Below are positions 1 through 63,239 of a DNA stretch of 64,000 nucleotides, one piece after another. The notes below the pieces were generated by a model that had not been told where the DNA came from, ran no database searches, and saw nothing but the letters and a program-made list of their open reading frames with translations. The stretch spans positions 89,273-153,272 of the forward strand of contig PFAZ01000001.1 in the NCBI GenBank assembly GCA_002773535.1, written 5' to 3'. Origin of the DNA: Candidatus Harrisonbacteria bacterium CG10_big_fil_rev_8_21_14_0_10_40_38. GTDB lineage: Bacteria > Patescibacteriota > Minisyncoccia > UBA6257 > 1-14-0-10-40-38. Both the position numbers and the translations under genes were made by a program. Every line of letters starts with the position of its first letter. Position 1 is the stretch's first letter.

Positions 1-273
1 AAAATATCCTGAGCCAAGCCGAAGGATAACCTTTAAAAATAAAAAATAATACACTGACATTTTAAGACACATACTCTGTATGTGTCGTAAAATGTATATT
101 GTACGACAGGTAGTATTTTGGTTTAAGCACCCACGTGGATATGCTCTTCCCTAGTTTTAATTGCAAGTCATCAGTCGTCAGTCTTAAGTTGTTAGTTGCT
201 TAACCCACTCACATTCACTATGTCGCATTCTATATTTCACAGCCTTAAGTTGTCAGTCATTGGTCTTCAGTTA

Positions 274-1281
274 TCAGTTCTTCAGTTTTTTACTCGCCCT
301 ATAAAGCCCATACCAGAGCTTATTTAGCGGTAAATCCCACGTACCAGGATATGTAACTATAAAACCGCCAAAACTCTTCTTATAAGCCGTTATACCGCTC
401 CATCTTGGGTTTTGCTCGCTAACACCCCAAAAATCAAATACAGAGCATCCTCGTCGCTTTGCATCCATTATCGCCTGCCATAGTAATAGCGTCGGTGCAT
501 TATACCTTCCAAACCCGCTTGCAGAGGCCGAATATAGATATATTGCCGTCTTTCCGAAGTAAATTATTATCGCCGAAGACAAAACCTTTCCATCTTCCAT
601 TTTCGCAACAAAAAGATCCGCTTCGATACCTCCGCTAAGTTCAAGCACCGATTCGTAGTAAGCTTTTGGATAAGCTTTTAATTTATGTCGCGTGTTTGTC
701 TCGCGAAAAAGTTTCCAGAACTCATCAAAACTTTTTTTCTGGTTGGAAGAAGAAACTGTTTCAATAGTTATATTTCTTTTAAGAGCGGTCTTAATCGCAT
801 ATCGTGTCCCCTGCTCCATTTCCTTAAATAAAACTTTTTCTGATTTTGTCAAATCAATTACAAGAGTATGTTCTGGTTGTGCTTCGATAGATTCGACAAA
901 CCCAAGCGAGCGAAGAGTCTTTATTGCAAATGTCACATTTCCCAAATCAGAAGGAACCGGTTCAAGTCTCAAAAAAATTGTTTCTTTGGATAATTCTTTT
1001 TTTACAAAATCAACAAGCCTCTTTAGGGTTTCTGGGTATTCATTTATTAAAACTGGTCCACGCGGCGCGTAGAGATATCTTTTTTCATAAGGAAGCTTGT
1101 GCTCAGTAATAAGCGCCGCCATCTGTGAACTACCTATTCGCCAGATTTTTCTTCCACGCGCCTCCTGAAAATCTCCCCATTCCCAACTTTGCAAAAAAGA
1201 ACCGCCGTTTTCAGTTACGAACTTGTTCCAGTTATTTTGTTTAGCCGAATCGACATAATAGTGTAAAGATCGTCCCTCCAT
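274..1281 (-). CDS. FemAB-family peptidoglycan interpeptide-bridge transferase (aminoacyl-tRNA dependent)
   Basis: 335-aa ORF with the FemAB/MurM-like fold signature in the translation (WEWGDFQ, YLYAPRGPV); sits in a cell-wall gene block. Confidence 0.7.
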   Translation of the reverse strand: MEGRSLHYYVDSAKQNNWNKFVTENGGSFLQSWEWGDFQEARGRKIWRIGSSQMAALITEHKLPYEKRYLYAPRGPVLINEYPETLKRLVDFVKKELSKETIFLRLEPVPSDLGNVTFAIKTLRSLGFVESIEAQPEHTLVIDLTKSEKVLFKEMEQGTRYAIKTALKRNITIETVSSSNQKKSFDEFWKLFRETNTRHKLKAYPKAYYESVLELSGGIEADLFVAKMEDGKVLSSAIIIYFGKTAIYLYSASASGFGRYNAPTLLLWQAIMDAKRRGCSVFDFWGVSEQNPRWSGITAYKKSFGGFIVTYPGTWDLPLNKLWYGLYRASKKLKN

Positions 1282-2617: not shown

Positions 2618-4147
2618 TCAAAGTCCAAGATCGCCGCCAATAGACCCTAGTTTTTTAATAGCCACACCAATTCGCGATAAAGTCTCATTCTTTCCCAATA
2701 CATCCATTATCTCAAATGGCCCAGGGGAAGCTTCCTTTCCCGAAAGCGCAACCCTAAGAGGCCACAATACTGCTCCCCTGCCCACTCGATCCGAAATCTC
2801 GGACAAAACTTCTAAAAGTCTATTGGCATTAAACGAATCATCGGAAACATTAGAAATAATTTTCTCAACCGATTCCAATGTTTCGGCAACAACAGATGCT
2901 GGCGCATCCTGCCATATAAGCATCTTAGGCTCATAATCCGGCAGTTCAAAAAAGAAATCCGAAAGCTCTATAAAATCGGTTAATTTTTTCATCCGTTCCA
3001 TGCTAAAAGACAGGAGCCTGTCTATCTGTGATTCAGAAAGACCATCTGGAATAGTTGAAACATTTTTTATAGCCACAAGGAGATCTTTTTGAGAAAGCGA
3101 TTTTATATACTGTGCATTCATCCAATCAAGTTTTTGCCCATTAAACACAGCTCCGGCCTTCTGTACCCTTTCAATTTCAAAAAGTTTTACAAGTTCATCT
3201 TTGGTAAAAATCTCTCTTTCTTCACCGTTTTCATCAGCCGACTGTTCAGCGCTTGGATGCCACCCTAAAAGCGCCAAGAAATTAAATAAAGCCTCAGGAA
3301 GGTAGCCGTCTTTTTTATATTCCGACACCGCGGTGTCAGAAAATCTCTTAGACATCTTTGTTTTGTCCGGATTTAAAATTAGCGGCATGTGGGCATAATG
3401 TGGCACATGAAATCCAAGCGCCTCAATGAGCGCCACTTGTTTTGCGGTATTCGAAAAATGCTCCTCACCACGTATCACATGAGTTATCTGCATTTCAGAG
3501 TCATCAATAACAACAGCAAAATTATAAAGCGGATCATCGAGTGATCTTGCGATAACTATGTCACCGGAAAGTGACAAATCAAAAACGGTTTTTCCACGTA
3601 TCATGTCATTAACCGAAACTTTCGCCTCAGGCATTTTAAATCTAAGAACGGCAGATTCCCCATCTGACATTCTTTTCTCTGCTTCTGATGTAGGAACCCC
3701 TCTACACCTGCCACTATATTTTGGCGGCTGCCCTTGGGTCATCTGGCTCTGCCTCATCGCTTCAATTTCCTCCTTTGTACAAAAACACCAGTATGCATGT
3801 TTTTCCTCGATAAGTTTTTTTGCATACTTTTCATAAATCTCGCTTCTTTCACTCTGTCTATATGGCCCAAATTTTCCCAACTCGTTTTCAGTTTTTAGTT
3901 CCAAGTTTTTAGTTAATTGTGGTCCTTCATCCCAATCAATCCCGAGCCATTCCAAATTTTCCAAGATATTCTCTTCGTATTCTGGAAGAGAGCGTTCCTT
4001 ATCGGTATCTTCTACTCGCACAACAAAAACACCTTCATGTTTTCGTGCATAAAGCCAGTTAAATAAAGCAGTTCTAGCGCCTCCAATATGCAGATTTCCC
4101 GTAGGGCTTGGCGCAAAACGCACTCTTGGTGGCTTACTGGGAGTCAT
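2618..4147 (-). CDS. gltX: glutamyl-tRNA synthetase
   Basis: HIGH motif (PTGNLHIGGART) and KMSKR motif present; 509 aa; carries an ~18-aa LKTKN-type insertion encoded by the heptad repeat (see findings). Confidence 0.9.
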   Translation of the reverse strand: MTPSKPPRVRFAPSPTGNLHIGGARTALFNWLYARKHEGVFVVRVEDTDKERSLPEYEENILENLEWLGIDWDEGPQLTKNLELKTENELGKFGPYRQSERSEIYEKYAKKLIEEKHAYWCFCTKEEIEAMRQSQMTQGQPPKYSGRCRGVPTSEAEKRMSDGESAVLRFKMPEAKVSVNDMIRGKTVFDLSLSGDIVIARSLDDPLYNFAVVIDDSEMQITHVIRGEEHFSNTAKQVALIEALGFHVPHYAHMPLILNPDKTKMSKRFSDTAVSEYKKDGYLPEALFNFLALLGWHPSAEQSADENGEEREIFTKDELVKLFEIERVQKAGAVFNGQKLDWMNAQYIKSLSQKDLLVAIKNVSTIPDGLSESQIDRLLSFSMERMKKLTDFIELSDFFFELPDYEPKMLIWQDAPASVVAETLESVEKIISNVSDDSFNANRLLEVLSEISDRVGRGAVLWPLRVALSGKEASPGPFEIMDVLGKNETLSRIGVAIKKLGSIGGDLGL

Positions 4148-14379: not shown

Positions 14380-14530
14380 TTTTTTTACTAATTTTTCATA
14401 TTTCATGTCGCATTCCACATGCCACATTCCACATTTTACATTCACTATGTCGCATTCCACATGCCACAACCTTAATTAGAAATTAGATTAATTAGTAATT
14501 TTCTCATTCCCCATAATTCATATTTTCGCG
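14380..14530. repeat. intergenic repeat block: two copies of ATGTCGCATTCCACATGCCACA core plus ATTAG hexamer array
   Basis: Core motif at 14404-14425 and 14446-14467; aattagaaattagattaattagtaatt follows; related copies at 215-245 and 59960-60290. Confidence 0.7.
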
Positions 14531-14571: not shown

Positions 14572-15675
14572 ATGTCAGTAGCCATTTATCGCAAATACAG
14601 ACCAAAAAGCTTTGGAGACCTATTAGGTCAGGAACATATAATAGAAATCCTCAAAAACGCCGCCATAAGAGACCGTATTGCGCACGGCTATCTTTTTTAT
14701 GGCACGAGAGGTAGTGGTAAAACGACAGTGGCGAGAATTTTGGCAAAAGTGGCAAATTGCGAAACTCGCGCAAAAGACAAAAAATTTCACGACAAAGGAG
14801 AACCATGTAACACCTGTCCAAGATGTATCGAGCTAGACGAAGGTCGCGCGCTAGATGTTGTCGAGATTGATGCCGCCTCAAACAGGGGCATAGACGAAAT
14901 CAGGTCACTAAAAGAAAGTGTACGACTCTCCCCCACAGTAGCAAAGCACAAAATTTATATAATCGACGAAACTCATCAGCTCACCAAAGAGGCATTTAAC
15001 GCTCTTTTAAAAACTCTTGAAGAACCACCTGCTCACGCCATTTTTATTCTGGCTACTACAGAATTTGAAAAAGTCCCCGCCACTATCAGTTCTCGCACCC
15101 AAAGATTTCATTTTAAAAAACTCCCAATAGAATCAATCATCAAAAAACTTGAGACTATTTCCAAAACCGAAAAAATGGATATAGAAAAAGATGCCATTGA
15201 GCTTATTGCGGCAGTTGCAGATGGCTCATTTCGTGATGCAGAAACTCTTATTGACCAGATAACATCACTCGAAGACAAAGTCACGGTTGAAAGCGTGGAG
15301 AAGATTATCGGTAAAGTCGGTTTTACAAGAATAGCCGAGCTCGCAGGATTTATTCTCGAAAACGATCTTAACAAATCTCTTGAATACATTGCCACTTTTC
15401 AAAATAACGGATTAAACATTGTAGACCTTGCAAAAGAGCTTATTCACTATCTCCGCCGCGCGCTTGCCCTCAAAGCAGACCCAAAACTCGAAGAAATATT
15501 CAAAAATGACCTCACAGAACGTGAGCGCGAAACCTTAAAATCCCACAGCGAAAAAATAAACCCCGAAAAACACATATCGCTTATACGAGACCTTATTCGC
15601 AGCTATTCGGATATGCGATATTCCCCTTTCGCGAGTATTCCTCTCGAAGTAACCCTCATTGAACATTTGAAGTAA
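14572..15675 (+). CDS. dnaX: DNA polymerase III subunit gamma/tau (short form)
   Basis: Walker A GTRGSGKTT, zinc-module CxxC...C, clamp-loader AAA+ N-terminal domain; 367 aa. Confidence 0.85.
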   Translation: MSVAIYRKYRPKSFGDLLGQEHIIEILKNAAIRDRIAHGYLFYGTRGSGKTTVARILAKVANCETRAKDKKFHDKGEPCNTCPRCIELDEGRALDVVEIDAASNRGIDEIRSLKESVRLSPTVAKHKIYIIDETHQLTKEAFNALLKTLEEPPAHAIFILATTEFEKVPATISSRTQRFHFKKLPIESIIKKLETISKTEKMDIEKDAIELIAAVADGSFRDAETLIDQITSLEDKVTVESVEKIIGKVGFTRIAELAGFILENDLNKSLEYIATFQNNGLNIVDLAKELIHYLRRALALKADPKLEEIFKNDLTERERETLKSHSEKINPEKHISLIRDLIRSYSDMRYSPFASIPLEVTLIEHLK

Positions 15676-19363: not shown

Positions 19364-19383
19364 ATTTTACCACAATTTCCAAT

Positions 19384-19728
19384 TTACAATTCATAATTTC
19401 TAATTTTTAATTCACGTCTTAATTTCCTATAATCCGGAAAAACCCTCGAAACTAAACCCCAAAACCTCGGCGAATGATTAAACTCTTCGAGGTGACAGAG
19501 CTCATGGACGATTACGTAGTCTCGGAGAATTGCCGGCAGAAAAAATAATTTATAGTTAAAATTCAAATTCCTTTTTTCACTACAACTTCCCCAGCAGGTT
19601 TTTTGATTTTTAATAAATATCCGATTAAAAGAGTGATCATAAATCTGGTTAAAATAGCCAACCCTCTCATGAATCAACCTCCTCGCATCTTCCTTGTATT
19701 TCTTATAATGAAACTTCGTAAGCCGCAT
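19384..19728 (-). CDS. YgjP/DUF45-like metal-dependent hydrolase (HExxH)
   Basis: WGSCS...VHELCHL motif arrangement typical of DUF45. Confidence 0.5.
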   Translation of the reverse strand: MRLTKFHYKKYKEDARRLIHERVGYFNQIYDHSFNRIFIKNQKTCWGSCSEKRNLNFNYKLFFLPAILRDYVIVHELCHLEEFNHSPRFWGLVSRVFPDYRKLRRELKIRNYEL

Positions 19729-34537: not shown

Positions 34538-34885
34538 GCGAGTTCTCCAAAAGTGGGTTTGAAAAGAACAACGGCAGTCTACATAAAATTAAAAACATTG
34601 TAAATATCCACACATAAAAATTTGCGATAATTTAGTAAAAAAGTTAATCTGAAATCAGCATTCGGACATAAGGGAGGCGGTCTCAAAAATCTAAAAGCAG
34701 CAAGAAGGAACCCCTCCTTTATCGATACCCTCGCCGAGACATGCTAGATCTCGGCGAGGGGTTTTCTTTTTTTAAAAAAACCGCGCCCATATTTTCAGTT
34801 ATTAGTCGTCAGTCGTAAGTTCCTAGTCGCTACCCACTAACCCATCTAATTCCTAGTGGCTTAAATTAGTTTTCAGTTTTCTGTT

Positions 34886-37468
34886 TCAAGTCTTTAGTAT
34901 CCTCCTAAGATATTCCCCCGTAAAACTTTTCCCTGTTTTAGCTATCTGCTCTGGCGTCCCTTCCGCAATTATTTTTCCTCCCTTGTCTCCTCCTTCGGGC
35001 CCAAGGTCAATGACCCAATCAGCAGATTTTATTACATCAAGATTGTGTTCGATAACAACAACGCTGTTTCCACGCTCAACAAGCCTGTTTAAAACATCAA
35101 GGAGTTTTTGAACATCGGCAAAATGAAGTCCGGTAGTCGGTTCATCAAAAAGATAAATTGTTCGGTGCGTATCACGCTTTCCAAGTTCCGCAGAAAGCTT
35201 AATGCGTTGCGCCTCACCGCCAGATAATGTCGTCGCAGATTGTCCAAGTTCAAGATAGCCCAAGCCAACTTCTTCTAAAATTTTAAGCCTGTCGTGCAAC
35301 CAAGGAACATCATAAAAAAAAGTTACAGCCTCCTCAACGGTCATTTTAAGAACCTCATGAATATTTTTCCTATTCTTATCTTTCCCTCTTCGATCAAGAC
35401 CGGAAGTAGTCGATGGGCCATAAGTAACTTCTAAAGTCTCGCGGTCAAATCTTTTACCACGGCAAACATCACACTCAACATAAACCGTTGGTAAAAAATG
35501 CATTTCAATCGCGATTACTCCATGTCCCTCGCAGTTTTCACATCGCCCTCCTTTTACGTTGAAGCTAAATCTCCCCGGTTTATATCCTCTCACTCTCGCC
35601 TCTTCAGTAGAAGCAAAAAGATCACGAATATACGTCCACGCGCCTACGTAAGTTGCAGGGTTTGATCTAGGCGTCCTTCCGATCGCCGACTGATCAATGT
35701 TTATAACCCGATTCAAATTCTCCAGACCGGAAAGTGAGCTCATCTCCGCTGTCTTATATTTTGTATAGTTAAATTTGTTTGAAAGCGAACGATAAAGAAC
35801 GTCATAAAGAAGAGTGCTTTTCCCAGAACCAGAAACACCCGTTATAGCCACAAATCTTTTAAGAGGTATCTTTGCGGTAACTCCTTTCAGGTTATTTATA
35901 TTAATATTTTTCGCTACTAAAAACGGATGATCTTTCTTTAGCTTCCTCCTTTCAGACGGAACAGCTATCATCTGTTTTCCACGAAGATAATCAAGTGTCG
36001 GTGAATGTTGCTTCGTATCTTTCAAAAGCGCTGGCATCGGCCCAGCAGCAACCACGTGTCCTCCGTGAACACCAGCTCCGGGCCCGATATCTACTAGATA
36101 ATCAGATGCCCTGATTGTATCTTCGTCGTGTTCAACGACAAGGATTGAGTTCCCAAGATCACGAAGTTCTAGAAGCGTATTTATTAGTTTTGCGTTATCT
36201 CTTTGGTGTAGGCCAATGGTCGGTTCATCAAGAACATAAAGCGCTCCAACAAGTCGGGAGCCAATCTGCGATGCCAACCTTATTCTCTGCGCTTCACCTC
36301 CAGAGAGAGTCCCCGCCTTTCGGTTTAAAGTAAGATACTCAAGCCCAACATCGTACATAAACTTAAGTCGGCTCTGAATCTCGCGAAGCGGAACCTCTGC
36401 AATAGCGAGTATATTTTGCGCATCCTGCTGCCTCTTCAATGAAAACTTCTTTTTAAAAGATTCAAAAAATTCAGTCGCCTCCGATATAGAAAAACCCGTA
36501 ACCGAAGCAATATTTTTTCCATCAATTAAAACATTTAACGCTTCAGGCTTTAGTCTTCGCCCCTCGCATGCTTTACAAATATTATCCGAAAAAAGATCTT
36601 CAGTCCCAAGACCGTGGCAAGTTTCACATGCTCCAAATGGACTATTAAATGAAAAAAGTCTCGGTTCGATTTCCGGAAAAGAAAATCCATCTCTAGGACA
36701 AGTAAACTTTGTCGAAAAAGACGCTTCGCGATCAGTCACGATTGTCGCAACTCCTTTGCCATATTTGAGCGCATTCTCAACTGCCTCCGAAACGCGCAAA
36801 CGACTATCCTTACTCGAAAAGTCGAGCATGCCGGGCATCCTATCTACCACAAGCTCAATCGTATGCATTTTATATCGCGCGATATCTATCCTGTCATGAA
36901 GCGAAATATATTCCCTATCAATCCTCGCTTCCGAAAAACCGGCATTCAAAAGATCATACAAAAGCTGAAAGTGTTCACCCTTTCGGCCCTGAACAACCGG
37001 CGCCAAAATAACAAGATTTTTTCCTTTGCCGGTTTTTGCAAAATCAATCGCAATATCCACTATCTCCTCGTTTGTAAGCCGCCTTATCTCTTCTCCGCAA
37101 TCAGGGCAGTGTGGAACACCGGCGCGAGCAAAAAGTACCCGAAGATAATCATATATCTCGGTTATCGTAGCAACTGTAGAACGAGGATTTGCGCTATGAC
37201 TTTTTTGGTCAATGGAAATTGCAGGCGAAAGCCCCTCAATCTCATCAACATCGGGTTTATCAAGCTTTCCTAAAAATTGCCTCGCATACGCAGAAAGCGA
37301 CTCAATATATCGCCTCTGCCCTTCGGCAAAAATTGTATCAAACGCAAGTGAAGACTTCCCAGAACCAGAAAGACCCGTAAACACAACCAGTTTATCCCTC
37401 GGAATCTCGAGTGAAATATTTTTCAGGTTATGTTGCCGCGCTCCTTTGATTTTGATTTTATTTTGCAT
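34886..37468 (-). CDS. uvrA: excinuclease ABC subunit A
   Basis: Two ABC ATPase modules ([18 protein letters not shown]), LSGGE signatures, zinc-finger CxxC pairs; 860 aa. Confidence 0.9.
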
Positions 37469-37635
37469 ATCACTTATTCGTTAATTCATTATTCTTAATT
37501 CATAATTCAAAAAACTTAATCTACTAAATTAAGAACAAAAAATATAGATTTTATTCCTTTACACCACAGAATGACCCCAATCCGTCTTTAGGGGTTGTCA
37601 CAAAAAGTAACACAAAATCCGCTTATCGTAAAACC

Positions 37636-40867: not shown

Positions 40868-42955
40868 TTACAAACCTCTCCCTTTGCTTTTCTTAATCAA
40901 AACTCTCATTTCGTCTCTCAAAATCGCAGCTAGCTCAAAGTCCAGTTGCTTCGCCGCCTCCTTCATTTCCAATTCTTTTTCTTTGATTAGTTTTTCGATA
41001 GCAGTTTTTGATTTCGGCATCGGTTTCATTTCAAAACGAAGCACATCTTCCGCCAACTTACCCTTTTCATCATATTCAGGAAGAATATCCTTAACAGCTT
41101 TAATAATTGTTTTCGGCGTAATGCCATGTTTCTTGTTATATTCCATCTGCAATTTTCTCCTTCTATCGGTTTCTCTTACAGCTCTTTCGATTGAACCGGT
41201 TATACGATCAGCATAAATCACCACTTCACCGGCAACGTTTCTTGCCGCGCGCCCAATAGTTTGAATGAGCGATGTTTCACTCCTCAAAAATCCTTCTTTG
41301 TCAGCATCTAAAATCGCCACCAGTGAAACTTCTGGCAAGTCTAATCCCTCACGAAGCAGGTTTACACCAACAAGCACATCAAAATCCCCTCTTCTAAGCG
41401 CGGTTAATATTCTTATCCTATCGAGTGTTTTCACGTCACTATGTAAATAAGCAACCTTCGGCTTCAAGTTTTTAGTTTTTAGTTTTAAGTTCGCAAGATA
41501 TTCCGAAAGATCTTCAGCCATCTTTTTTGTAAGCGTCGTAACTAAAACTCTTTCTTTTTTTCCAACCCTCTCTACGATCCTTTCGATCAAGTCATCTATC
41601 TGACCCAAAACCGGCCTCATGGTAATTTTTGGATCAACGAGCCCGGTCGGCCTGATAATCTGCTCAACAACCTGACCCGTTCGCGTGTTGCTTGTCACTT
41701 GCCGCTCGTAAGGTCCCGGTGTAGCCGATGTATACACAATATTCGAAACTCTCTTTAAAAACTCATCAAATTTCAAAGGCCTGTTATCCGCCGCAGAAGG
41801 CAGTCGAAACCCATATTCTATTAAAGTCTTTTTACGAGAAGCATCGCCTGCGTGCATTCCCTGGATCTGCGGCACAGTTACGTGAGATTCATCAATAACA
41901 GTCAAAAAGTCGGGTTTTCCGTCCTTTGTTTTTGGAAAATAATCCAAAAGCGTATCTGGCGGCGCTCCGGCAGCTCTCCCTGAAAGGTGACGCGAATAGT
42001 TTTCAATTCCATTACAATAACCAATCTCGTTTATCATCGCGATATCAGCCTTAGTTCTTCTTTCAAGTCTTTCTGCTTCAAGATATTTTTTTTCTTTCTC
42101 AAATTTTACGAGCTGCGCTGAAAGCTCCTTTCGTATAGCAGCAACAGCTCTTTGCCTATCATCTTTTTGAGTAATAAAATGCTTTGCGGGAGAAATTATG
42201 AGTTCTGGTATTAATGGAGTTTTACCGGGTTGAAAACCAGCAACAGGATCAACCTCAAAAATTTTCTCAATTACGCCATCGTGAGTTTTCACAAAATAAA
42301 TCAACTCTCTGTCAGGAGGCATTATTTCCCATTGATCACCCCTAAGACGAAAACTTCCACGTTTTAAGTCGGCAGATGTCCTCGTAAAATGAAGCTCGAT
42401 AAGTTTGCGGGCAAAAGACGCTCTATCAATCTTATCGCCCTCTTTAAAATGAAAAATGTTTTGCGCATAAACTTCCGGCGCGCCAAGTCCGTATATGCAC
42501 GAAACCGAAGCGACAACTATCACATCACGTCGCGTGAGAAGCGCAGTCGTAGCCGCATGTCGCAATTTATCAATCTCATCGTTTATCATCGCCTCTTTTG
42601 CGATATATGTGTCCGACATCGGCATGTATGCCTCCGGCTGATAGTAGTCGTAGTATGAAACAAAATAATGAACCGCGTTATTCGGAAACAATTCCCGAAA
42701 CTCATTGGCAAGCTGTGCCGCCAAAGTTTTATTGTGAGCGATTACAAGAGCCGGTTTATTTATTTCCGCTATCACGTGCGCCGCAGTGAAAGTTTTTCCG
42801 CTTCCGGTAACACCAAGAAGGATCTGATTTCGCAGATTTTTTTTGATACCAGAAACCAAAGCGGATATCGCTTTAGGCTGATCCCCAGCCGGTTTGTTTT
42901 TTGATTCAACACGAAACATAAGGAGAAGAATACTGATATTACTGAATAATATCAA
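40868..42955 (-). CDS. uvrB: excinuclease ABC subunit B
   Basis: Walker A GVTGSGKTF, helicase motifs, beta-hairpin region, C-terminal UVR domain; contains NLKLKTKNLKPK heptad-repeat insertion. Confidence 0.9.
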   Translation of the reverse strand: MILFSNISILLLMFRVESKNKPAGDQPKAISALVSGIKKNLRNQILLGVTGSGKTFTAAHVIAEINKPALVIAHNKTLAAQLANEFRELFPNNAVHYFVSYYDYYQPEAYMPMSDTYIAKEAMINDEIDKLRHAATTALLTRRDVIVVASVSCIYGLGAPEVYAQNIFHFKEGDKIDRASFARKLIELHFTRTSADLKRGSFRLRGDQWEIMPPDRELIYFVKTHDGVIEKIFEVDPVAGFQPGKTPLIPELIISPAKHFITQKDDRQRAVAAIRKELSAQLVKFEKEKKYLEAERLERRTKADIAMINEIGYCNGIENYSRHLSGRAAGAPPDTLLDYFPKTKDGKPDFLTVIDESHVTVPQIQGMHAGDASRKKTLIEYGFRLPSAADNRPLKFDEFLKRVSNIVYTSATPGPYERQVTSNTRTGQVVEQIIRPTGLVDPKITMRPVLGQIDDLIERIVERVGKKERVLVTTLTKKMAEDLSEYLANLKLKTKNLKPKVAYLHSDVKTLDRIRILTALRRGDFDVLVGVNLLREGLDLPEVSLVAILDADKEGFLRSETSLIQTIGRAARNVAGEVVIYADRITGSIERAVRETDRRRKLQMEYNKKHGITPKTIIKAVKDILPEYDEKGKLAEDVLRFEMKPMPKSKTAIEKLIKEKELEMKEAAKQLDFELAAILRDEMRVLIKKSKGRGL

Positions 42956-57653: not shown

Positions 57654-59384
57654 ATGCCAAAGAAAAAGACACCAAAATTCATCTTCATAACAGGCGGCGT
57701 AATGTCCGGAGTCGGCAAGGGCATAGCCGCCTCTTCTATTGGCAAGATAATGCAGGCGAGGGGTTTTAAAGTAACCGCTTTAAAAATCGACCCTTACGTA
57801 AACGTAGACGCCGGCACAATGAATCCCACAGAGCACGGAGAGGTTTTTGTATTAAGCGACGGCACAGAGTGCGATCAGGACATGGGAAATTACGAAAGGT
57901 TTCTCGAGTGTGAACTCACAAGCGCAAACTATATAACAACCGGTAGTATATACCAGCGCGTTATCGAGAAAGAAAGAAATCTCGAATATCAGGGAAAGTG
58001 TGTTGAGGTTGTTCCACATATTCCACTCGAAGTTATTGATAAAATTGAGAACGCAGCAAAACTTGCCGGAGCAGATATTGTCATTACAGAAATTGGCGGA
58101 ACAATTGGTGAATACCAAAACATTCTATTTTTGGAAGCTGTAAGGATGATGAAATTAAAAAGTCCCGGCCACGTTGCGACAGTTCTTGTCAGCTTCCTGC
58201 CTCTACAAGGAAAAGACAGCGAGTTAAAAACAAAACCAACCCAATACGCAGTAAGAAGTCTAAACAGCGCCGGCATACAGCCAGACATTATTATAGCAAG
58301 AGCATCCGTTGCGCTTGATAAAAAACGAAAAGAAAAAATTGCTTTTAACTGCAACATGGAAGAAGCCGACGTTATATCAGCCCCAAACGTTGAAAATATT
58401 TACGAAGTTCCTCTAAATTTTGAACGTGAGAAATTAAGCGCGAAACTGGTTAAAAAACTAAATCTAGAATCAGATAAAACTGATTTAAAATCATGGAAAA
58501 CTCTTGTTCGAAATACAAAAAATCCTAAAAAAACACTTCAAATAGGAATTGTTGGAAAATATTTCGGTACGGGCAATTTTACTCTAGCCGATTCATATAT
58601 TTCAGTCATCGAGGCCATACGCCATGGAGCGCAAGCAAAAAAAGTAAAAGCAGAAATCACTTGGGTTGATTCCAGCAGCTTTGATCCAAAAGAAAATAAA
58701 TCATGGCGCAGTAAAATTAAATCTCTAAATAAATTTGACGGTATCCTCGTACCGGGAGGTTTTGGCAGCAGGGGTGTTGAAGGGAAAATTAAGACGATAC
58801 AGTTTGCCAGAGAAAATAAAATCCCATATTTGGGACTTTGCTATGGAATGCAGCTTGCAGTCGTAGAGTACTCACGAAATGTTGCCGGGTTAAACAAAGC
58901 GCACACCGTAGAAGTTCACGAGAATACCCCACATCCCGTCATTGCGGTTCTTCCCGAACAGGAATTAAACATAGAAAAAAAACGCTATGGCGGAACCATG
59001 CGCCTAGGAACATATAAAGCGGTTTTAAAAGAAAAAACACTTGTTCACGGAGCATACAAAAAATCACACGAATCAAAATCTTCAACCCTTAAATCAAAAG
59101 TTTTCAATTCAATTATTGATGAACGACACAGACACAGATATGAAGTTAATCCGGAGTATGTCGAGATACTCGAAAAAAACGGTCTCACTTTTTCAGGAAC
59201 ATCAGAAGACAAGCGCCTCATGGAAATCATCGAACTCCCAACAGAAATACACCCATTCTTCGTAGCCACACAATTTCATCCCGAATTCAAATCAAAGCCA
59301 TTATCACCACACCCAATATTCGAGTCATTCATAAACGCCAGCATCGAATCAAACAAGATAAAATTGCACAAGACAAACAAATAA
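57654..59384 (+). CDS. pyrG: CTP synthase
   Basis: N-terminal synthase domain (FITGGVMSGVGKG) and C-terminal GATase (GLCYGMQ, HPEF). Confidence 0.9.
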   Translation: MPKKKTPKFIFITGGVMSGVGKGIAASSIGKIMQARGFKVTALKIDPYVNVDAGTMNPTEHGEVFVLSDGTECDQDMGNYERFLECELTSANYITTGSIYQRVIEKERNLEYQGKCVEVVPHIPLEVIDKIENAAKLAGADIVITEIGGTIGEYQNILFLEAVRMMKLKSPGHVATVLVSFLPLQGKDSELKTKPTQYAVRSLNSAGIQPDIIIARASVALDKKRKEKIAFNCNMEEADVISAPNVENIYEVPLNFEREKLSAKLVKKLNLESDKTDLKSWKTLVRNTKNPKKTLQIGIVGKYFGTGNFTLADSYISVIEAIRHGAQAKKVKAEITWVDSSSFDPKENKSWRSKIKSLNKFDGILVPGGFGSRGVEGKIKTIQFARENKIPYLGLCYGMQLAVVEYSRNVAGLNKAHTVEVHENTPHPVIAVLPEQELNIEKKRYGGTMRLGTYKAVLKEKTLVHGAYKKSHESKSSTLKSKVFNSIIDERHRHRYEVNPEYVEILEKNGLTFSGTSEDKRLMEIIELPTEIHPFFVATQFHPEFKSKPLSPHPIFESFINASIESNKIKLHKTNK

Positions 59385-59450
59385 TCTAAATCTGCCAGCC
59401 CAAACAAAAACCCCATAGCGAAACGCATGGGGTTCTGCAAACGTACGACA

Positions 59451-59636
59451 TCATCGTAAAAAGTTTGTTGAAAAAAGGAACAATGAAGCAGACAAAACAA
59501 AAATACAAAAAACAAGAAAAAGGAAAGACACTGTTTCAGAAAAACGTTTACTAGAATAATCAGAAGCTCCGAAATACCAAACACCGATCACTGCCAACGC
59601 CGCTACAATCGCTTCAATCAAATATTCCGTTTTCAT
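59451..59636 (-). CDS. small membrane protein
   Basis: 61 aa, two TM helices, RBS AAGGAGAG upstream, terminator 59405-59440 downstream. Confidence 0.45.
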   Translation of the reverse strand: MKTEYLIEAIVAALAVIGVWYFGASDYSSKRFSETVSFLFLVFCIFVLSASLFLFSTNFLR

Positions 59637-59659
59637 TTTTCTCTCCTTCTTTAATCAAC

Positions 59660-59900
59660 GAAAAAAATAAAAAAGAGTCTAGTCGGGACCTTAGCACACA
59701 CCACAAGGGAGCCCAAATCCTCCGTCAATGTGCGCGTTACCCGACTAGACTCAGCTAACCAAATATTACCACGCAGAAATCTTATGTCAATTAAAAACCC
59801 CTCGTCTCCGCAAACGCAGAAACGAGGGTGTGGCCTGACGTGCTTTGGCTAGACTTTCCAGTCTCAAGAGACTGGTCTCGGCAGGTCACGCACTTATAAT
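59660..59900. ncRNA. candidate structured RNA (class unassigned)
   Basis: 13-bp perfect stem gagtctagtcggg (59675-59687) / cccgactagactc (59740-59752); further GC-rich hairpins to 59890; 650-bp gap before pgk. Confidence 0.3.
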
Positions 59901-59939
59901 AATAGCAATTTAAAATATATTGTCAATACCTGTTTTTTT

Positions 59940-60285
59940 TCATTAACTAGATCAATTAGTCGTTACATGTCGCATTTAACATTCCACAATCTTCAGTATT
60001 TAGTTTTCAGTTTCAAGTTTTCGGTTTTTAGTTGTAAGTCTTAAGTCTTAAGTTTTCGTCTTCGGTCATTAGTATTTGGAATTTATTTGTAATTTGGGAT
60101 TTGGAATTTAATTAGGTCAATTAGATTAATTATCATGCCGAAGGCAGATCCTCCTCCGGAGGAGCAATTAGAAATTAGTCGTTAGTCTTCAGTTATTAGT
60201 TTTTAGTTGCTAGTTGCTAGTCTTTAGTTGTAAGTTGTAAGTCACATTGTTTTACATATAACATTTCACATGCCACAATATTGTT
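59940..60285. repeat. intergenic repeat block: AGT-heptad arrays, ATGTCGCATT...CCACA core copies, ATTAG array, 14-bp palindrome CTCCTCCGGAGGAG
   Basis: Runs of 7-nt units tagtcgt/tagtctt/cagttat/tagtttt/tagttgc...; core motif at 59964-59990 and 60255-60285. Confidence 0.7.
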
Positions 60286-61404
60286 ATGAACTTTCTAAGC
60301 AAAGCAAAACAATCAGCTATAAAAAATAAAACATGCATCCTTCGTGCTGGCTTCGACATACAAAATAAAAATGAAACACTCCGTCTCGAAGCCACTCTTC
60401 CCACACTCAACCTTCTTTTAAAAAATGATGCAAAAATTATTATTATCGCTCACCGTGGCCGACCAAAAAAAACATACTCTTTAGGAAAAAAAGTAAAAGC
60501 AAATAAAGACGAAACCCTCGCTGTAACACTTCCCTACTTTAAAAAAAATCTTAAAACCCAAATAACCCTCGTTTCAGATTTTAATCTCAAAACCCTTAAA
60601 GAAAAAATCAAAAAATCAAAACCTAAAACAATCTTCCTTCTCGAAAATATCCGACTTATTAAAGGCGAAGAAAAGGCAGACCCAAAGCTCGGCAAAGCCC
60701 TTTCAGAACTTGGAGATTTTTATATAAATGACGACTTTGCCGCAGCACACAGGTCAAACTCCTCAATAACAGAGATTCCAAAACACATACCATCCTATGC
60801 AGGTCTTCTTCTCGAAGCTGAAATAAACGCACTCAGAAGAGCAACCAGTAAACCCAAAAAACCGTTTGTTGTAATCGTAGGCGGAGCCAAAGTGCCGGAA
60901 AAAATTTCCGTTGTCGGAAAGCTACTGCCAACAGCCCAAACATTCCTCATCGGCGGCATAGTGGCTACAACATTTCTAAAAGCAAAAAACCTTGATATCG
61001 GCAAGTCAAAATTCGATAAAGAAATGATACAAGCCGCTCAAACTCTCGAAAAAAGTAAAAAAATAATTTTACCCGCAGATTATGTCGTTCACAATGACGA
61101 GATTCAGGACATAGGTCCCGGAGCAATAAAAATCTTCAGCACAGAAATTAAAAAAGCATCAACAATCCTCTGGAATGGCCCCATGGGACACTTTGAAGAT
61201 AAAAGATTTAGAAAGGGTTCGGAAATGATTGCGAGAGCAATAGCAAAGAGTAAGGCATTTTCACTGATAGGCGGCGGGGAAACAACAGAATTAATTAGGG
61301 AATTAAAACTTCAAAAGAAGGTTGGCTTTCTCTCAACTGGAGGCGGAGCTATGCTCACCTATCTCGGAGGCGGAGCTATGCCAGCGCTAGAAGCTCTTGG
61401 ATAA
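60286..61404 (+). CDS. pgk: phosphoglycerate kinase
   Basis: N-domain RAGFDIQ...AHRGRP and C-domain nucleotide-binding motifs; 372 aa. Confidence 0.85.
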   Translation: MNFLSKAKQSAIKNKTCILRAGFDIQNKNETLRLEATLPTLNLLLKNDAKIIIIAHRGRPKKTYSLGKKVKANKDETLAVTLPYFKKNLKTQITLVSDFNLKTLKEKIKKSKPKTIFLLENIRLIKGEEKADPKLGKALSELGDFYINDDFAAAHRSNSSITEIPKHIPSYAGLLLEAEINALRRATSKPKKPFVVIVGGAKVPEKISVVGKLLPTAQTFLIGGIVATTFLKAKNLDIGKSKFDKEMIQAAQTLEKSKKIILPADYVVHNDEIQDIGPGAIKIFSTEIKKASTILWNGPMGHFEDKRFRKGSEMIARAIAKSKAFSLIGGGETTELIRELKLQKKVGFLSTGGGAMLTYLGGGAMPALEALG

Positions 61405-61441
61405 AAGGACAAATTTCTAATTGATCTAATTAACCTAAAAA

Positions 61442-61798
61442 ATGAACAAGAAATTTGATCTTGAAGAAAGAACTGCAAGGTTTGGGGAAAATGTTATTAA
61501 ATTCTGCAAAAAAATTCCCAAAACCCCTATCACAACACCACTGGTTACACAATTAATAAAATCCGGAACAAGTGTTGGCGCAAATTATTGTGAAGCAGAT
61601 GACGCAGAAAGAAGAACGATTTCCGACATAAAATAGGAATCTGCAAAAAAAAAGCTAGGGAAAGTAAACATTTTTTAAGAATGATAAACACTACAAATCC
61701 AGAATTAAAAGATGAGCTAGTAATATTATGGCCAGAAGCAAAAGAATTAAATCTTGATTTCAATAAAATTTATCAACGATTAAAAGAAAAAAAGTAGT
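61442..61798 (+). pseudogene. four-helix-bundle protein (23S rRNA intervening-sequence protein family), frameshifted
   Basis: N-terminal half in frame to 61636 (ends EADDAERR); the C-terminal half (KNDFRHKIGICKKKARESKHFLRMI...) continues in the -1 frame to 61798; the shift falls in the A-rich run gaaagaagaac. Confidence 0.5.
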
Positions 61799-61849
61799 TT
61801 AGAAATTGGTTATTAGAAATTAGGTCAATTAGAGCAATTAGATTAATTT

Positions 61850-62689: not shown

Positions 62690-62813
62690 GCGAAAAAAAG
62701 AAAAAAGGAATTTGATCATTATTTAAATTAATTTTAAACTTTACAATGTCATTTTCCATTTTGATTTTTCCATTTTAAACTATCCCTAATTCATTCTTCA
62801 TAACTCATAACCC

Positions 62814-63239
62814 ATGATTCACAATTCCCCTCTCATCATCTATACAGACGGCGGCGCCAGAGGTAATCCCGGTCCTGCAGCGATTGGATATGTTATTGGC
62901 GAAAAAACCTATGGCGAAGCAATAGGCTCCGCAACAAACAATATTGCCGAATACAGCGCAGTAATAGCAGCCCTCAAAAAAGCAAAACTTCTAATCGGAA
63001 AAGACAAAGCAAAAAAAACCGATGTTAAAGTCAACATGGACAGCGAGTTAGTTGTCCGCCAAATGAACGGAGAATATAAAATCAAAGAACCAGAACTCCA
63101 AAAACTATTCATTGAAATCTGGAACTTAAAACTCGACTTTAAGTCTGTCTCCTTTTCACATATCCCAAGAGAGCAAAACCGCGAAGCAGACAGACTTGTA
63201 AACGAAGCTCTAGATAAAGAAAAATCAAAGTTGTTTTAA
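62814..63239 (+). CDS. rnhA: ribonuclease H (type 1)
   Basis: DGG...NN.AEY...D...REQN..AD catalytic DEDD arrangement (TDGGARGNPG, NNIAEY, MDSELVV, REQNREADRL). Confidence 0.75.
   Translation: MIHNSPLIIYTDGGARGNPGPAAIGYVIGEKTYGEAIGSATNNIAEYSAVIAALKKAKLLIGKDKAKKTDVKVNMDSELVVRQMNGEYKIKEPELQKLFIEIWNLKLDFKSVSFSHIPREQNREADRLVNEALDKEKSKLF

Follow-up and report, generated by a model that had tools for sequence, protein, structure and literature searches.

In-frame heptanucleotide repeat arrays in gltX and uvrB of a Harrisonbacteria genome and their intergenic counterparts

A 64,000-nt stretch of the genome of Candidatus Harrisonbacteria bacterium CG10_big_fil_rev_8_21_14_0_10_40_38 (contig PFAZ01000001.1, positions 89,273 to 153,272; hereafter, the window) contains tandem arrays of a degenerate 7-nt unit with an AGT core, both between genes and in frame within two genes, gltX, which encodes glutamyl-tRNA synthetase (GluRS), and uvrB. 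The element is a heptanucleotide simple-sequence repeat of the TAACTGA/AGT-core family, a kind already described. What is new is the host phylum, within the Candidate Phyla Radiation (CPR), and an unusually clear in-frame case; the mechanism is not new. We consider slippage, combined with selection for reading frame and against stop codons, to be the best explanation of the arrays, with a probability of roughly three in four. Contig look-ups added 7.4 kb to the left of the window and 9.2 kb to the right.

Heptad arrays between genes and in two coding sequences

Chains of at least four AGT units at period 7 were found at seven positions (166–196, 3890–3913, 34797–34827, 41467–41490, 59995–60018, 60030–60053, and 60177–60242). 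They are 4–10 units long, with AGT on the + strand in every one and ACT in none; the maximum across 30 dinucleotide shuffles was one 3-unit AGT chain. A mismatch-tolerant scan (score thresholds 13–14) returned eight arrays at five loci on the + strand and 0 on the − strand, against 0.025–0.075 in a Markov null. Tandem Repeats Finder reported period 7 at 3884–3914, 41467–41491 (94% matches), and 60175–60242 (9.7 copies). An earlier sequence-only reading of the window had proposed that the intergenic heptad arrays belong to one family with those in frame within gltX and uvrB, and these scans and shuffles confirm it. Six of the eight arrays are intergenic or at gene ends, as two same-direction arrays per locus with other sequence between them: locus A downstream of femAB, locus B downstream of uvrA, and locus C upstream of pgk. 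All eight share one orientation, with flanking genes on both strands.

The unit consensus is T-N-A-G-T-Y-N, and position 2 of 37 intergenic units is T in 14, C in 12, A in 11, and G in 0. Unit sequence is degenerate within arrays, and exact TCAGTTA is confined to single units inside A2, B1, and C2. A tandem 7-nt structure above chance and a mainly intergenic location are both features of heptanucleotide long simple-sequence repeats. The periodicity extends beyond the AGT unit. Autocorrelation of intergenic DNA gives an identity of 0.315 at lag 7 versus 0.286–0.289 at adjacent lags, with echoes at 14, 21, and 28, and coding DNA shows period 3 only, with no lag-7 signal. There are 14 period-7 segments versus 0.3 in the null. 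Five other heptad families (NCATKCC, AATTAGR, ATTTGGA, TAATTCA, and TTTNCAA types) lie in the same intergenic regions as AGT. The loci are thus made up of several heptad families together with dispersed non-heptad blocks, which corrects the proposal of a single element expanding between genes.

Assemblies made independently from other samples agree with the window at 99.99% across 10,379 nt and at 100% across 11,187 nt, with 0 indels, so the arrays are not an assembly artefact. RNA folding of the arrays gave no structure signal (z of −1.1 to +1.1), and no inverted repeats flank the AGT arrays. A known RNA family was ruled out by Rfam searches: a gathering-threshold search of the whole window returned tRNA-Gln alone, and an E-value search of 59380–60300 returned no match.

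The gltX gene (2618..4147, − strand, 509 aa) hosts an in-frame array at 3886..3918 (+ strand, tcagttt ttagttc caagttt ttagtta), which on the coding strand is AACTAAA AACTTGG AACTAAA AACTGAA, then AAC. The repeat had been carried on to 3950; it stops near 3918, and 3919–3950 is ordinary gltX coding sequence. The codons caa tta act aaa aac ttg gaa cta aaa act gaa aac gag read QLTKNLELKTENE, and the array encodes TKNLELKTEN (residues about 79–88) in a loop between the WDEGP and GPYRQS segments. The previously proposed insertion of ~18 aa relative to E. coli is present, with a measured size of +19 aa versus E. coli GluRS (8i9i) and +11 aa versus both Thermotoga GluRS (2o5r) and the canonical 10-aa Paceibacteria loop. 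The structure model of GluRS has a mean predicted local distance difference test score (pLDDT) of 90.9, falling below 50 at residues 81–86, and DSSP gives the insert neither helix nor extended strand. Both GluRS and UvrB of the window have 100% identical counterparts among Candidatus Harrisonbacteria proteins, and the closest other GluRS is only 55% identical to that of the window.

The array in uvrB (40868..42955, − strand; the true start is probably 42916, from the 683-aa database protein) lies at 41463..41496 (+ strand, caagttt ttagttt ttagttt taagttc). On the coding strand it is AACTTAA AACTAAA AACTAAA AACTTGA, and the codons aac tta aaa cta aaa act aaa aac ttg aag ccg encode NLKLKTKNLKP. 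An excess of ~7 aa had been read from the sequence, and the insert amounts to exactly +7 aa, which makes three units or 21 nt, relative to B. subtilis UvrB (2d7d) and to 98 of 120 Paceibacteria orthologs, in which this loop has 5 aa. Selection on the reading frame is visible in this exact +7 aa. The insert is predicted to form a coil (residues 478–488) in domain 3, with a predicted helix before it (465–477) and a predicted strand after it (489–492). Neither insert is present in solved structures of bacteria outside the CPR. Both are predicted coil, and the models together with the alignment gaps point to loops, which agrees with the proposal that LKTKN-type inserts would be tolerated as loops.

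Within about 54.7 kb of coding DNA only two segments reach array score; the units in both are exactly those found between genes, and they point the same way along the genome. Where AACT opens a codon, as it does in three coding units, the unit is always the stop-free AACTT (Asn-Leu). The remaining five units, in the other two phases, are without exception AACTA or AACTG; at codon position 1 these would be AAC-TAA or AAC-TGA. The chance of this stop-avoiding partition (3 among 8 units) is 1/56. We propose that arrays grow, shrink, and homogenise in 7-nt steps by replication slippage or unequal recombination, and that variants may sweep through arrays by concerted evolution. Inside genes, selection would pass only frame-restoring, stop-free states in tolerant loops, and a unit at codon position 1 would have to be AACTT, not AACTA or AACTG. 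The tolerant sites would be the GluRS WDEGP-GPYRQS loop and the helix-to-strand turn in UvrB domain 3, and the K/N/L/T-rich insert peptides are most likely functionless passengers.

Orthologous loops and other genes in relatives

We then compared the same loops in relatives. Among 120 orthologs, the GluRS loop varies from 1 to 46 aa. In UvrB orthologs with an insert, the commonest is +7 aa (8 orthologs), and others range from +8 to +25 aa. The DNA of the UvrB loop is period-7 in three of three relatives, with units AGTGACA (L121), NAAAAAT (L122), and AACNNNN plus inverted NNAGTYN (L123). In the last of these (L123 11500–11560), four AACNNNN units are followed by three opposite NNAGTYN units, an in-frame pair of inverted heptad arrays. 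For GluRS, the loop DNA is period-7 in five of seven relatives as well as in the window, and the units in relatives are AAAGTTN (26/28 lag-7 matches), AAATCTC, AAATATC, AGAATTN, and TCAAAAC. In the remaining two of seven, both Liptonbacteria (L125 10001–11518 and L126 10001–11551), the GluRS loop has a repeat of about 10–12 nt, of GCGGAYNNNN and AGCGTAAATC types, encoding ADERG/LDADKRG-like peptides; similar peptides also occur in several other GluRS orthologs.

Orthologous loops with different heptad units suggest in-frame microsatellites that would be either long-lived or recurrently re-seeded. This does not fit the lineage-specific insertion that had been proposed; with the ortholog alignment done, the same loops in other Paceibacteria hold other heptad arrays. 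LKTKN-like segments also occur at the GluRS site of orthologs, as NLKTQN and NLKSQK in proteins ~55% identical to the window GluRS, which partly counts against the earlier proposal. Similarity clustering intersperses insert-bearing GluRS and UvrB with insert-free ones. We rejected a single insert-bearing clade on this basis, with the qualification that the trees are shallow, resemble those of the unweighted pair group method with arithmetic mean, and are compatible with one origin and many losses. Taken from sequence comparison, this points to the GluRS and UvrB loops as recurrent or long-lived hot spots and not one lineage-specific event.

In-frame heptad arrays were also seen in lepA, uvrC, serS, trmD, Mur ligases, and an M23 peptidase of relatives. 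Of 27 period-7 segments in the Paceibacteria DNA that was examined, 11 are well inside coding sequence (6.4 per 100 kb coding), versus 18 of 356 (2.8 per 100 kb) in array-selected loci from other phyla, a comparison in which the intergenic counts are biased and the coding density is not. Outside the clade, three of nine AGT arrays in long open reading frames (ORFs) are in Pfam-recognised genes, one of them NadE of Magasanikbacteria, also CPR.

Known heptamer repeats and competing explanations

A search for (TNAGTYN)x4 with one genome per species gave at least 120 matches, and among the matches listed are Cyanobacteria, Bacteroidota, Acidobacteriota, Planctomycetota, Chloroflexota, Verrucomicrobiota, Beggiatoaceae, and two CPR genomes. 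In viral contigs a control of matched composition (TNGATYN x4) has matches too, so no relative abundance follows for the AGT core. No paper on such repeats in CPR turned up in our literature search.

Short tandemly repeated repetitive (STRR) heptamers of heterocyst-forming cyanobacteria reportedly include CCCCAGT, TTGGTCA, and CAACAGT, described by Mazel and colleagues in 1990, and Vioque is said to have reported in 1997 an STRR within the RNase P RNA gene. These share with the window heptamer arrays, an AGT core in two of three units, intergenic abundance, and tolerance within a variable loop of a gene. They differ in units and phylum, and the known intragenic STRR is in an RNA gene and is not an in-frame protein insertion. 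Elhai and colleagues reportedly described in 2008 small dispersed repeats nested within Nostoc heptamer arrays, an arrangement with a parallel here in a short non-heptad core (47 nt) that has heptamer arrays on either side at more than one locus. Only two copies of this core were seen, and the likeness noted is one of arrangement.

The closest described family is that of the TAACTGA (= TCAGTTA) direct repeats of Beggiatoaceae, 15 Cyanobacteria, and 5 Bacteroidetes (MacGregor 2015, PMC4679880). Those repeats are intermixed with other heptamers and show 7-nt indels between close strains; their "forward" orientation gives stops in all frames, and occasional ORF-internal copies are mostly at protein ends (PMC4679880). 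The window shares the 7-nt period, the AGT/ACT core, the mostly intergenic location, the mixture of heptamer families, and the occasional ORF-internal copies, and here too "forward" copies give stops at upstream ORF ends, those of femAB and uvrA. Unlike those repeats, the window arrays have a CPR host and degenerate TNAGTYN units that fall short of a strict exact-TAACTGA definition. The in-ORF copies here are "forward" AACT and stop-free, and their place is the catalytic-core region of two essential enzymes, not a protein end or a hypothetical ORF. In bacteria, no class of long simple-sequence repeats is more over-represented than heptamers, and polymerase-footprint slippage has been proposed as their cause (Mrazek 2007, as summarised in PMC4679880 and PMC4692102). 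Going by those summaries, the window resembles Mrazek's heptanucleotide repeats in its intergenic excess, a proposed slippage origin, and the disfavouring of non-triplet units in coding DNA, and differs in that coding non-triplet units persist as triple-unit, stop-free blocks recurring at orthologous loops class-wide. Calothrix heptamer repeats are mentioned in a passage of PMC4692102.

Two other classes were considered and set aside. A phase-variable contingency locus likewise has a non-triplet tandem repeat within coding sequence; here the hosts are essential cytosolic enzymes, the ORFs are intact and in frame, two independent assemblies agree exactly, and an on/off logic is implausible. A miniature inverted-repeat or REP-like element was rejected, as the arrays lack flanking inverted repeats and vary in copy length and unit order.

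In a rival reading, which we consider unlikely, the repeats are themselves small mobile or dispersed elements, or move together with them, and the coding copies are insertions and not in-situ expansions, comparable with miniature elements or with the small dispersed repeats of Nostoc heptamer arrays. It draws on the 47-nt core, found with AGT heptad flanks and three differences at two loci (B and a locus D to the right of the window), on a 93-nt composite block that recurs at 90% identity, and on 23-nt inverted repeats of the AATTAGR module around a frameshifted 23S-rRNA-intervening-sequence protein gene, with solo copies elsewhere. However, the two coding arrays consist of heptads only, with no core, inverted termini, or target duplication; array length and unit order differ at each locus; the different units in orthologous loops fit turnover in place; and no copy of the core was found among viral contigs or in the metagenome collection that was scanned, although JGI contigs of this organism exist. 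A mobile or dispersed process probably contributes to intergenic dispersal without replacing slippage. We give a lower probability still, and consider it quite improbable, that the arrays are regulatory binding sites with coding copies as incidental spill-over. Precedents exist: BOGUAY repeats mostly lie a few nt upstream of start codons, with S1, Csp, or CsrA binding proposed (PMC4679880), and deletion of heptamer repeats altered recO promoter output in Nostoc (bioRxiv 10.1101/2022.06.06.494920). AATTAGR and TAATTCA modules of the window do stand directly upstream of starts at 14572, 61850, and 37468. The AGT arrays themselves are away from starts and so depart from the BOGUAY pattern, with A placed over the femAB stop codon, B over that of uvrA, and C in the direction opposite to the published "forward" (that is, "reverse"). 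Their units are degenerate, the arrays give no structure signal, and the array downstream of uvrA is missing at the matching position in the relatives examined.

A replication-oriented architectural signal, in which uniform strand polarity would itself be the function, we regard as very improbable. Six AGT loci over ~80 kb and the other modules do share one orientation, among genes on both strands and with a negative GC skew, and this uniform chromosomal orientation resembles the same-orientation TAACTGA repeats of a Microcystis sample (MacGregor 2015, PMC4679880). Six loci give a two-sided probability of only about 0.03, though, and TNAGTY outside arrays is not strand-skewed (85 vs 106). No origin or terminus is within view, and none of the known polar motifs has the form of a tandem heptad array. 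Hardly credible, finally, is a chance likeness of Lys/Asn-rich low-complexity loops in an AT-rich genome. The loops are indeed K/N/L/T-rich, the genome is about 40% GC, and both loops are variable in many orthologs. Against this stand the limitation to two coding arrays that have the intergenic units and orientation, with the Markov null per window as given above; the 94% period-7 matches in uvrB when coding DNA overall lacks a lag-7 signal; and the period 7 of orthologous loops in DNA, which selection at the peptide level would not produce. No rival fits the coding copies as well as slippage with selection.

Several observations nevertheless weigh against slippage with selection as a full account. 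The frame had been proposed to survive through units in threes, which is so for uvrB (21 nt), but the gltX insert is no multiple of 21 nt (7 aa) relative to any reference. Independent assemblies show no length polymorphism, so that ongoing slippage is inferred and not observed; this absence of copy-number variation in unit steps (at arrays A, gltX, and C) is a weak negative, as the assemblies possibly come from the same clonal population, and between distant relatives GluRS and UvrB loop lengths do vary. All six AGT loci and every module copy seen share one orientation whatever the gene direction, which simple slippage would not predict. The 47-nt core and the 93-nt block were copied to distant loci, for which slippage alone is insufficient, and these duplicated blocks suggest some additional dispersal process. 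Nor does slippage account for the choice of 7 nt and of the AGT core.

A broader reading is possible, and we offer it tentatively: in Paceibacteria, 7-nt slippage would be a dominant, persistent indel process that keeps orthologous in-frame heptad microsatellites in housekeeping genes, with conserved periodicity, units turning over, and strand polarity. It cites the GluRS loop, the UvrB turn, LepA, UvrC, SerRS, TrmD, Mur ligases, and NadE, and takes unit turnover to be concerted across lineages whose proteins are about 55–77% identical and strand polarity to reflect replication direction. If it is true, part of CPR protein-length hypervariability would be a mutational by-product and not selection. 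For annotation, K/N/L/T-rich inserts in CPR housekeeping proteins can be repeat by-products and not functional domains, and heptad repeats are a likely source of assembly breaks and indel errors in metagenome-assembled genomes. The arrays extend the TAACTGA-type family beyond the three described lineages, and in-frame heptads in loops of essential enzymes are unusual for this type of repeat. They offer a clean natural case of the genetic code filtering a non-triplet microsatellite through triple-unit steps and phase-specific stop-free variants. If the hot-spot reading is true, the GluRS and UvrB loops would be tractable markers for slippage rate and strand polarity in uncultured bacteria.

Anatomy of the intergenic loci and neighbouring features

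At locus A, array A1 (160..202, +) has five TNAGTYN units, caagtca tcagtcg tcagtct taagttg ttagttg, downstream of femAB (274..1281, −; Pfam FemAB). The spacer (203..242, +) is built from a second heptad family, NCATKCC, as cacattc actatgt cgcattc tatattt. Array A2 (243..296, +), also of five units, covers the femAB stop codon (274–276) and last residues, ...KKLKN*. At locus B, array B1 (34793..34831, +; tcagtta ttagtcg tcagtcg taagttc ctagtcg) lies downstream of uvrA (34886..37468, −), whose 3′ end is within array B2 (34866..34902, +; ttagttt tcagttt tctgttt caagtct ttagtat). B2 covers the uvrA stop (34886–34888) and last residues, and the stop codons of femAB and uvrA are thus supplied by arrays A2 and B2.

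Between B1 and B2 lies the non-heptad core of about 47 nt (34827..34868, +), GTCGCTACCCACTAACCCATCTAATTCCTAGTGGCTTAAAT. It recurs with its three differences at locus D (L133 17297–17339), ~47 kb from locus B, where AGT heptads of the same orientation flank it as well. The core consensus (GTCGCTACCCACTAACyCAyCTAATTyCTAGTGGCTTAAAT) includes a CCACTA/TAGTGG stem. To the left, at 34728–34760 (+), a 12-bp perfect hairpin followed by a T-run lies in the gap separating locus B from the next − strand gene; no gene on the + strand precedes it.

Locus C precedes pgk (60286..61404, +). Array C1 (59988..60072, +) has about 12 heptads, 8 with exact AGT, and C2 (60172..60247, +), the longest array, has 10 consecutive TNAGTYN units. 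C2 ends about 40 nt from pgk, and C1 is about 215 nt from it. The flanking genes here are on the + strand, and the array direction is the same as at loci flanked by − strand genes. Modules of ATTTGGA type (60074–60109) and AATTAGR type (60105–60135) fill 60073..60135 (+) between C1 and C2, and a perfect 14-nt palindrome, CTCCTCCGGAGGAG, follows at about 60150–60163. The 93-nt composite block, which spans the end of C1 and these modules (window 60035–60125), recurs at L133 17408–17499. Two candidate small RNAs on the − strand adjoin locus C on its left, one at 59795–59895 (minimum free energy −46.2, z −4.8; a sigma-70-like promoter and a scanned terminator hairpin) and one at 59660–59765 (−43.0, z −5.6; a sigma-70-like promoter and a long stem, then a U-run); neither has an Rfam match at E≤1.

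Heptads of the other families occur at further sites. A mosaic upstream of dnaX (14389..14500, +) has about ten NCATKCC units and then AATTAGR, which shows heptad periodicity to be general in the intergenic DNA of this genome. The remaining sites are 19369–19416, 37473–37520, 60074–60109, and 62781–62827, and the types over all five sites are NCATKCC, TTTNCAA, TAATTCA, ATTTGGA, and NNNTCAT. Some non-AGT heptads are directly upstream of starts (dnaX, 14572; uvrA, 37468), and others overlap the start of an RNase H-like gene (62814) or the stop of a YgjP-like gene (19384..19728).

The frameshifted 23S-rRNA-intervening-sequence protein gene lies at 61442–61797 (+; PF05635, E 6e-10 with two frames joined), between 91%-complementary arms at 61416–61438 and 61820–61842. 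Solo AATTAGR copies are at 14470–14500 and 60105–60135. This region may be a decayed small cassette whose ends seeded one intergenic repeat family.

Only two of the thirty-two 2-kb bins that make up the 64 kb lack a negative GC skew, despite several switches in gene orientation. The + strand is markedly enriched in CAAAA/AAAAA-type words, and the heptad arrays place their T- and G-rich strand on +.

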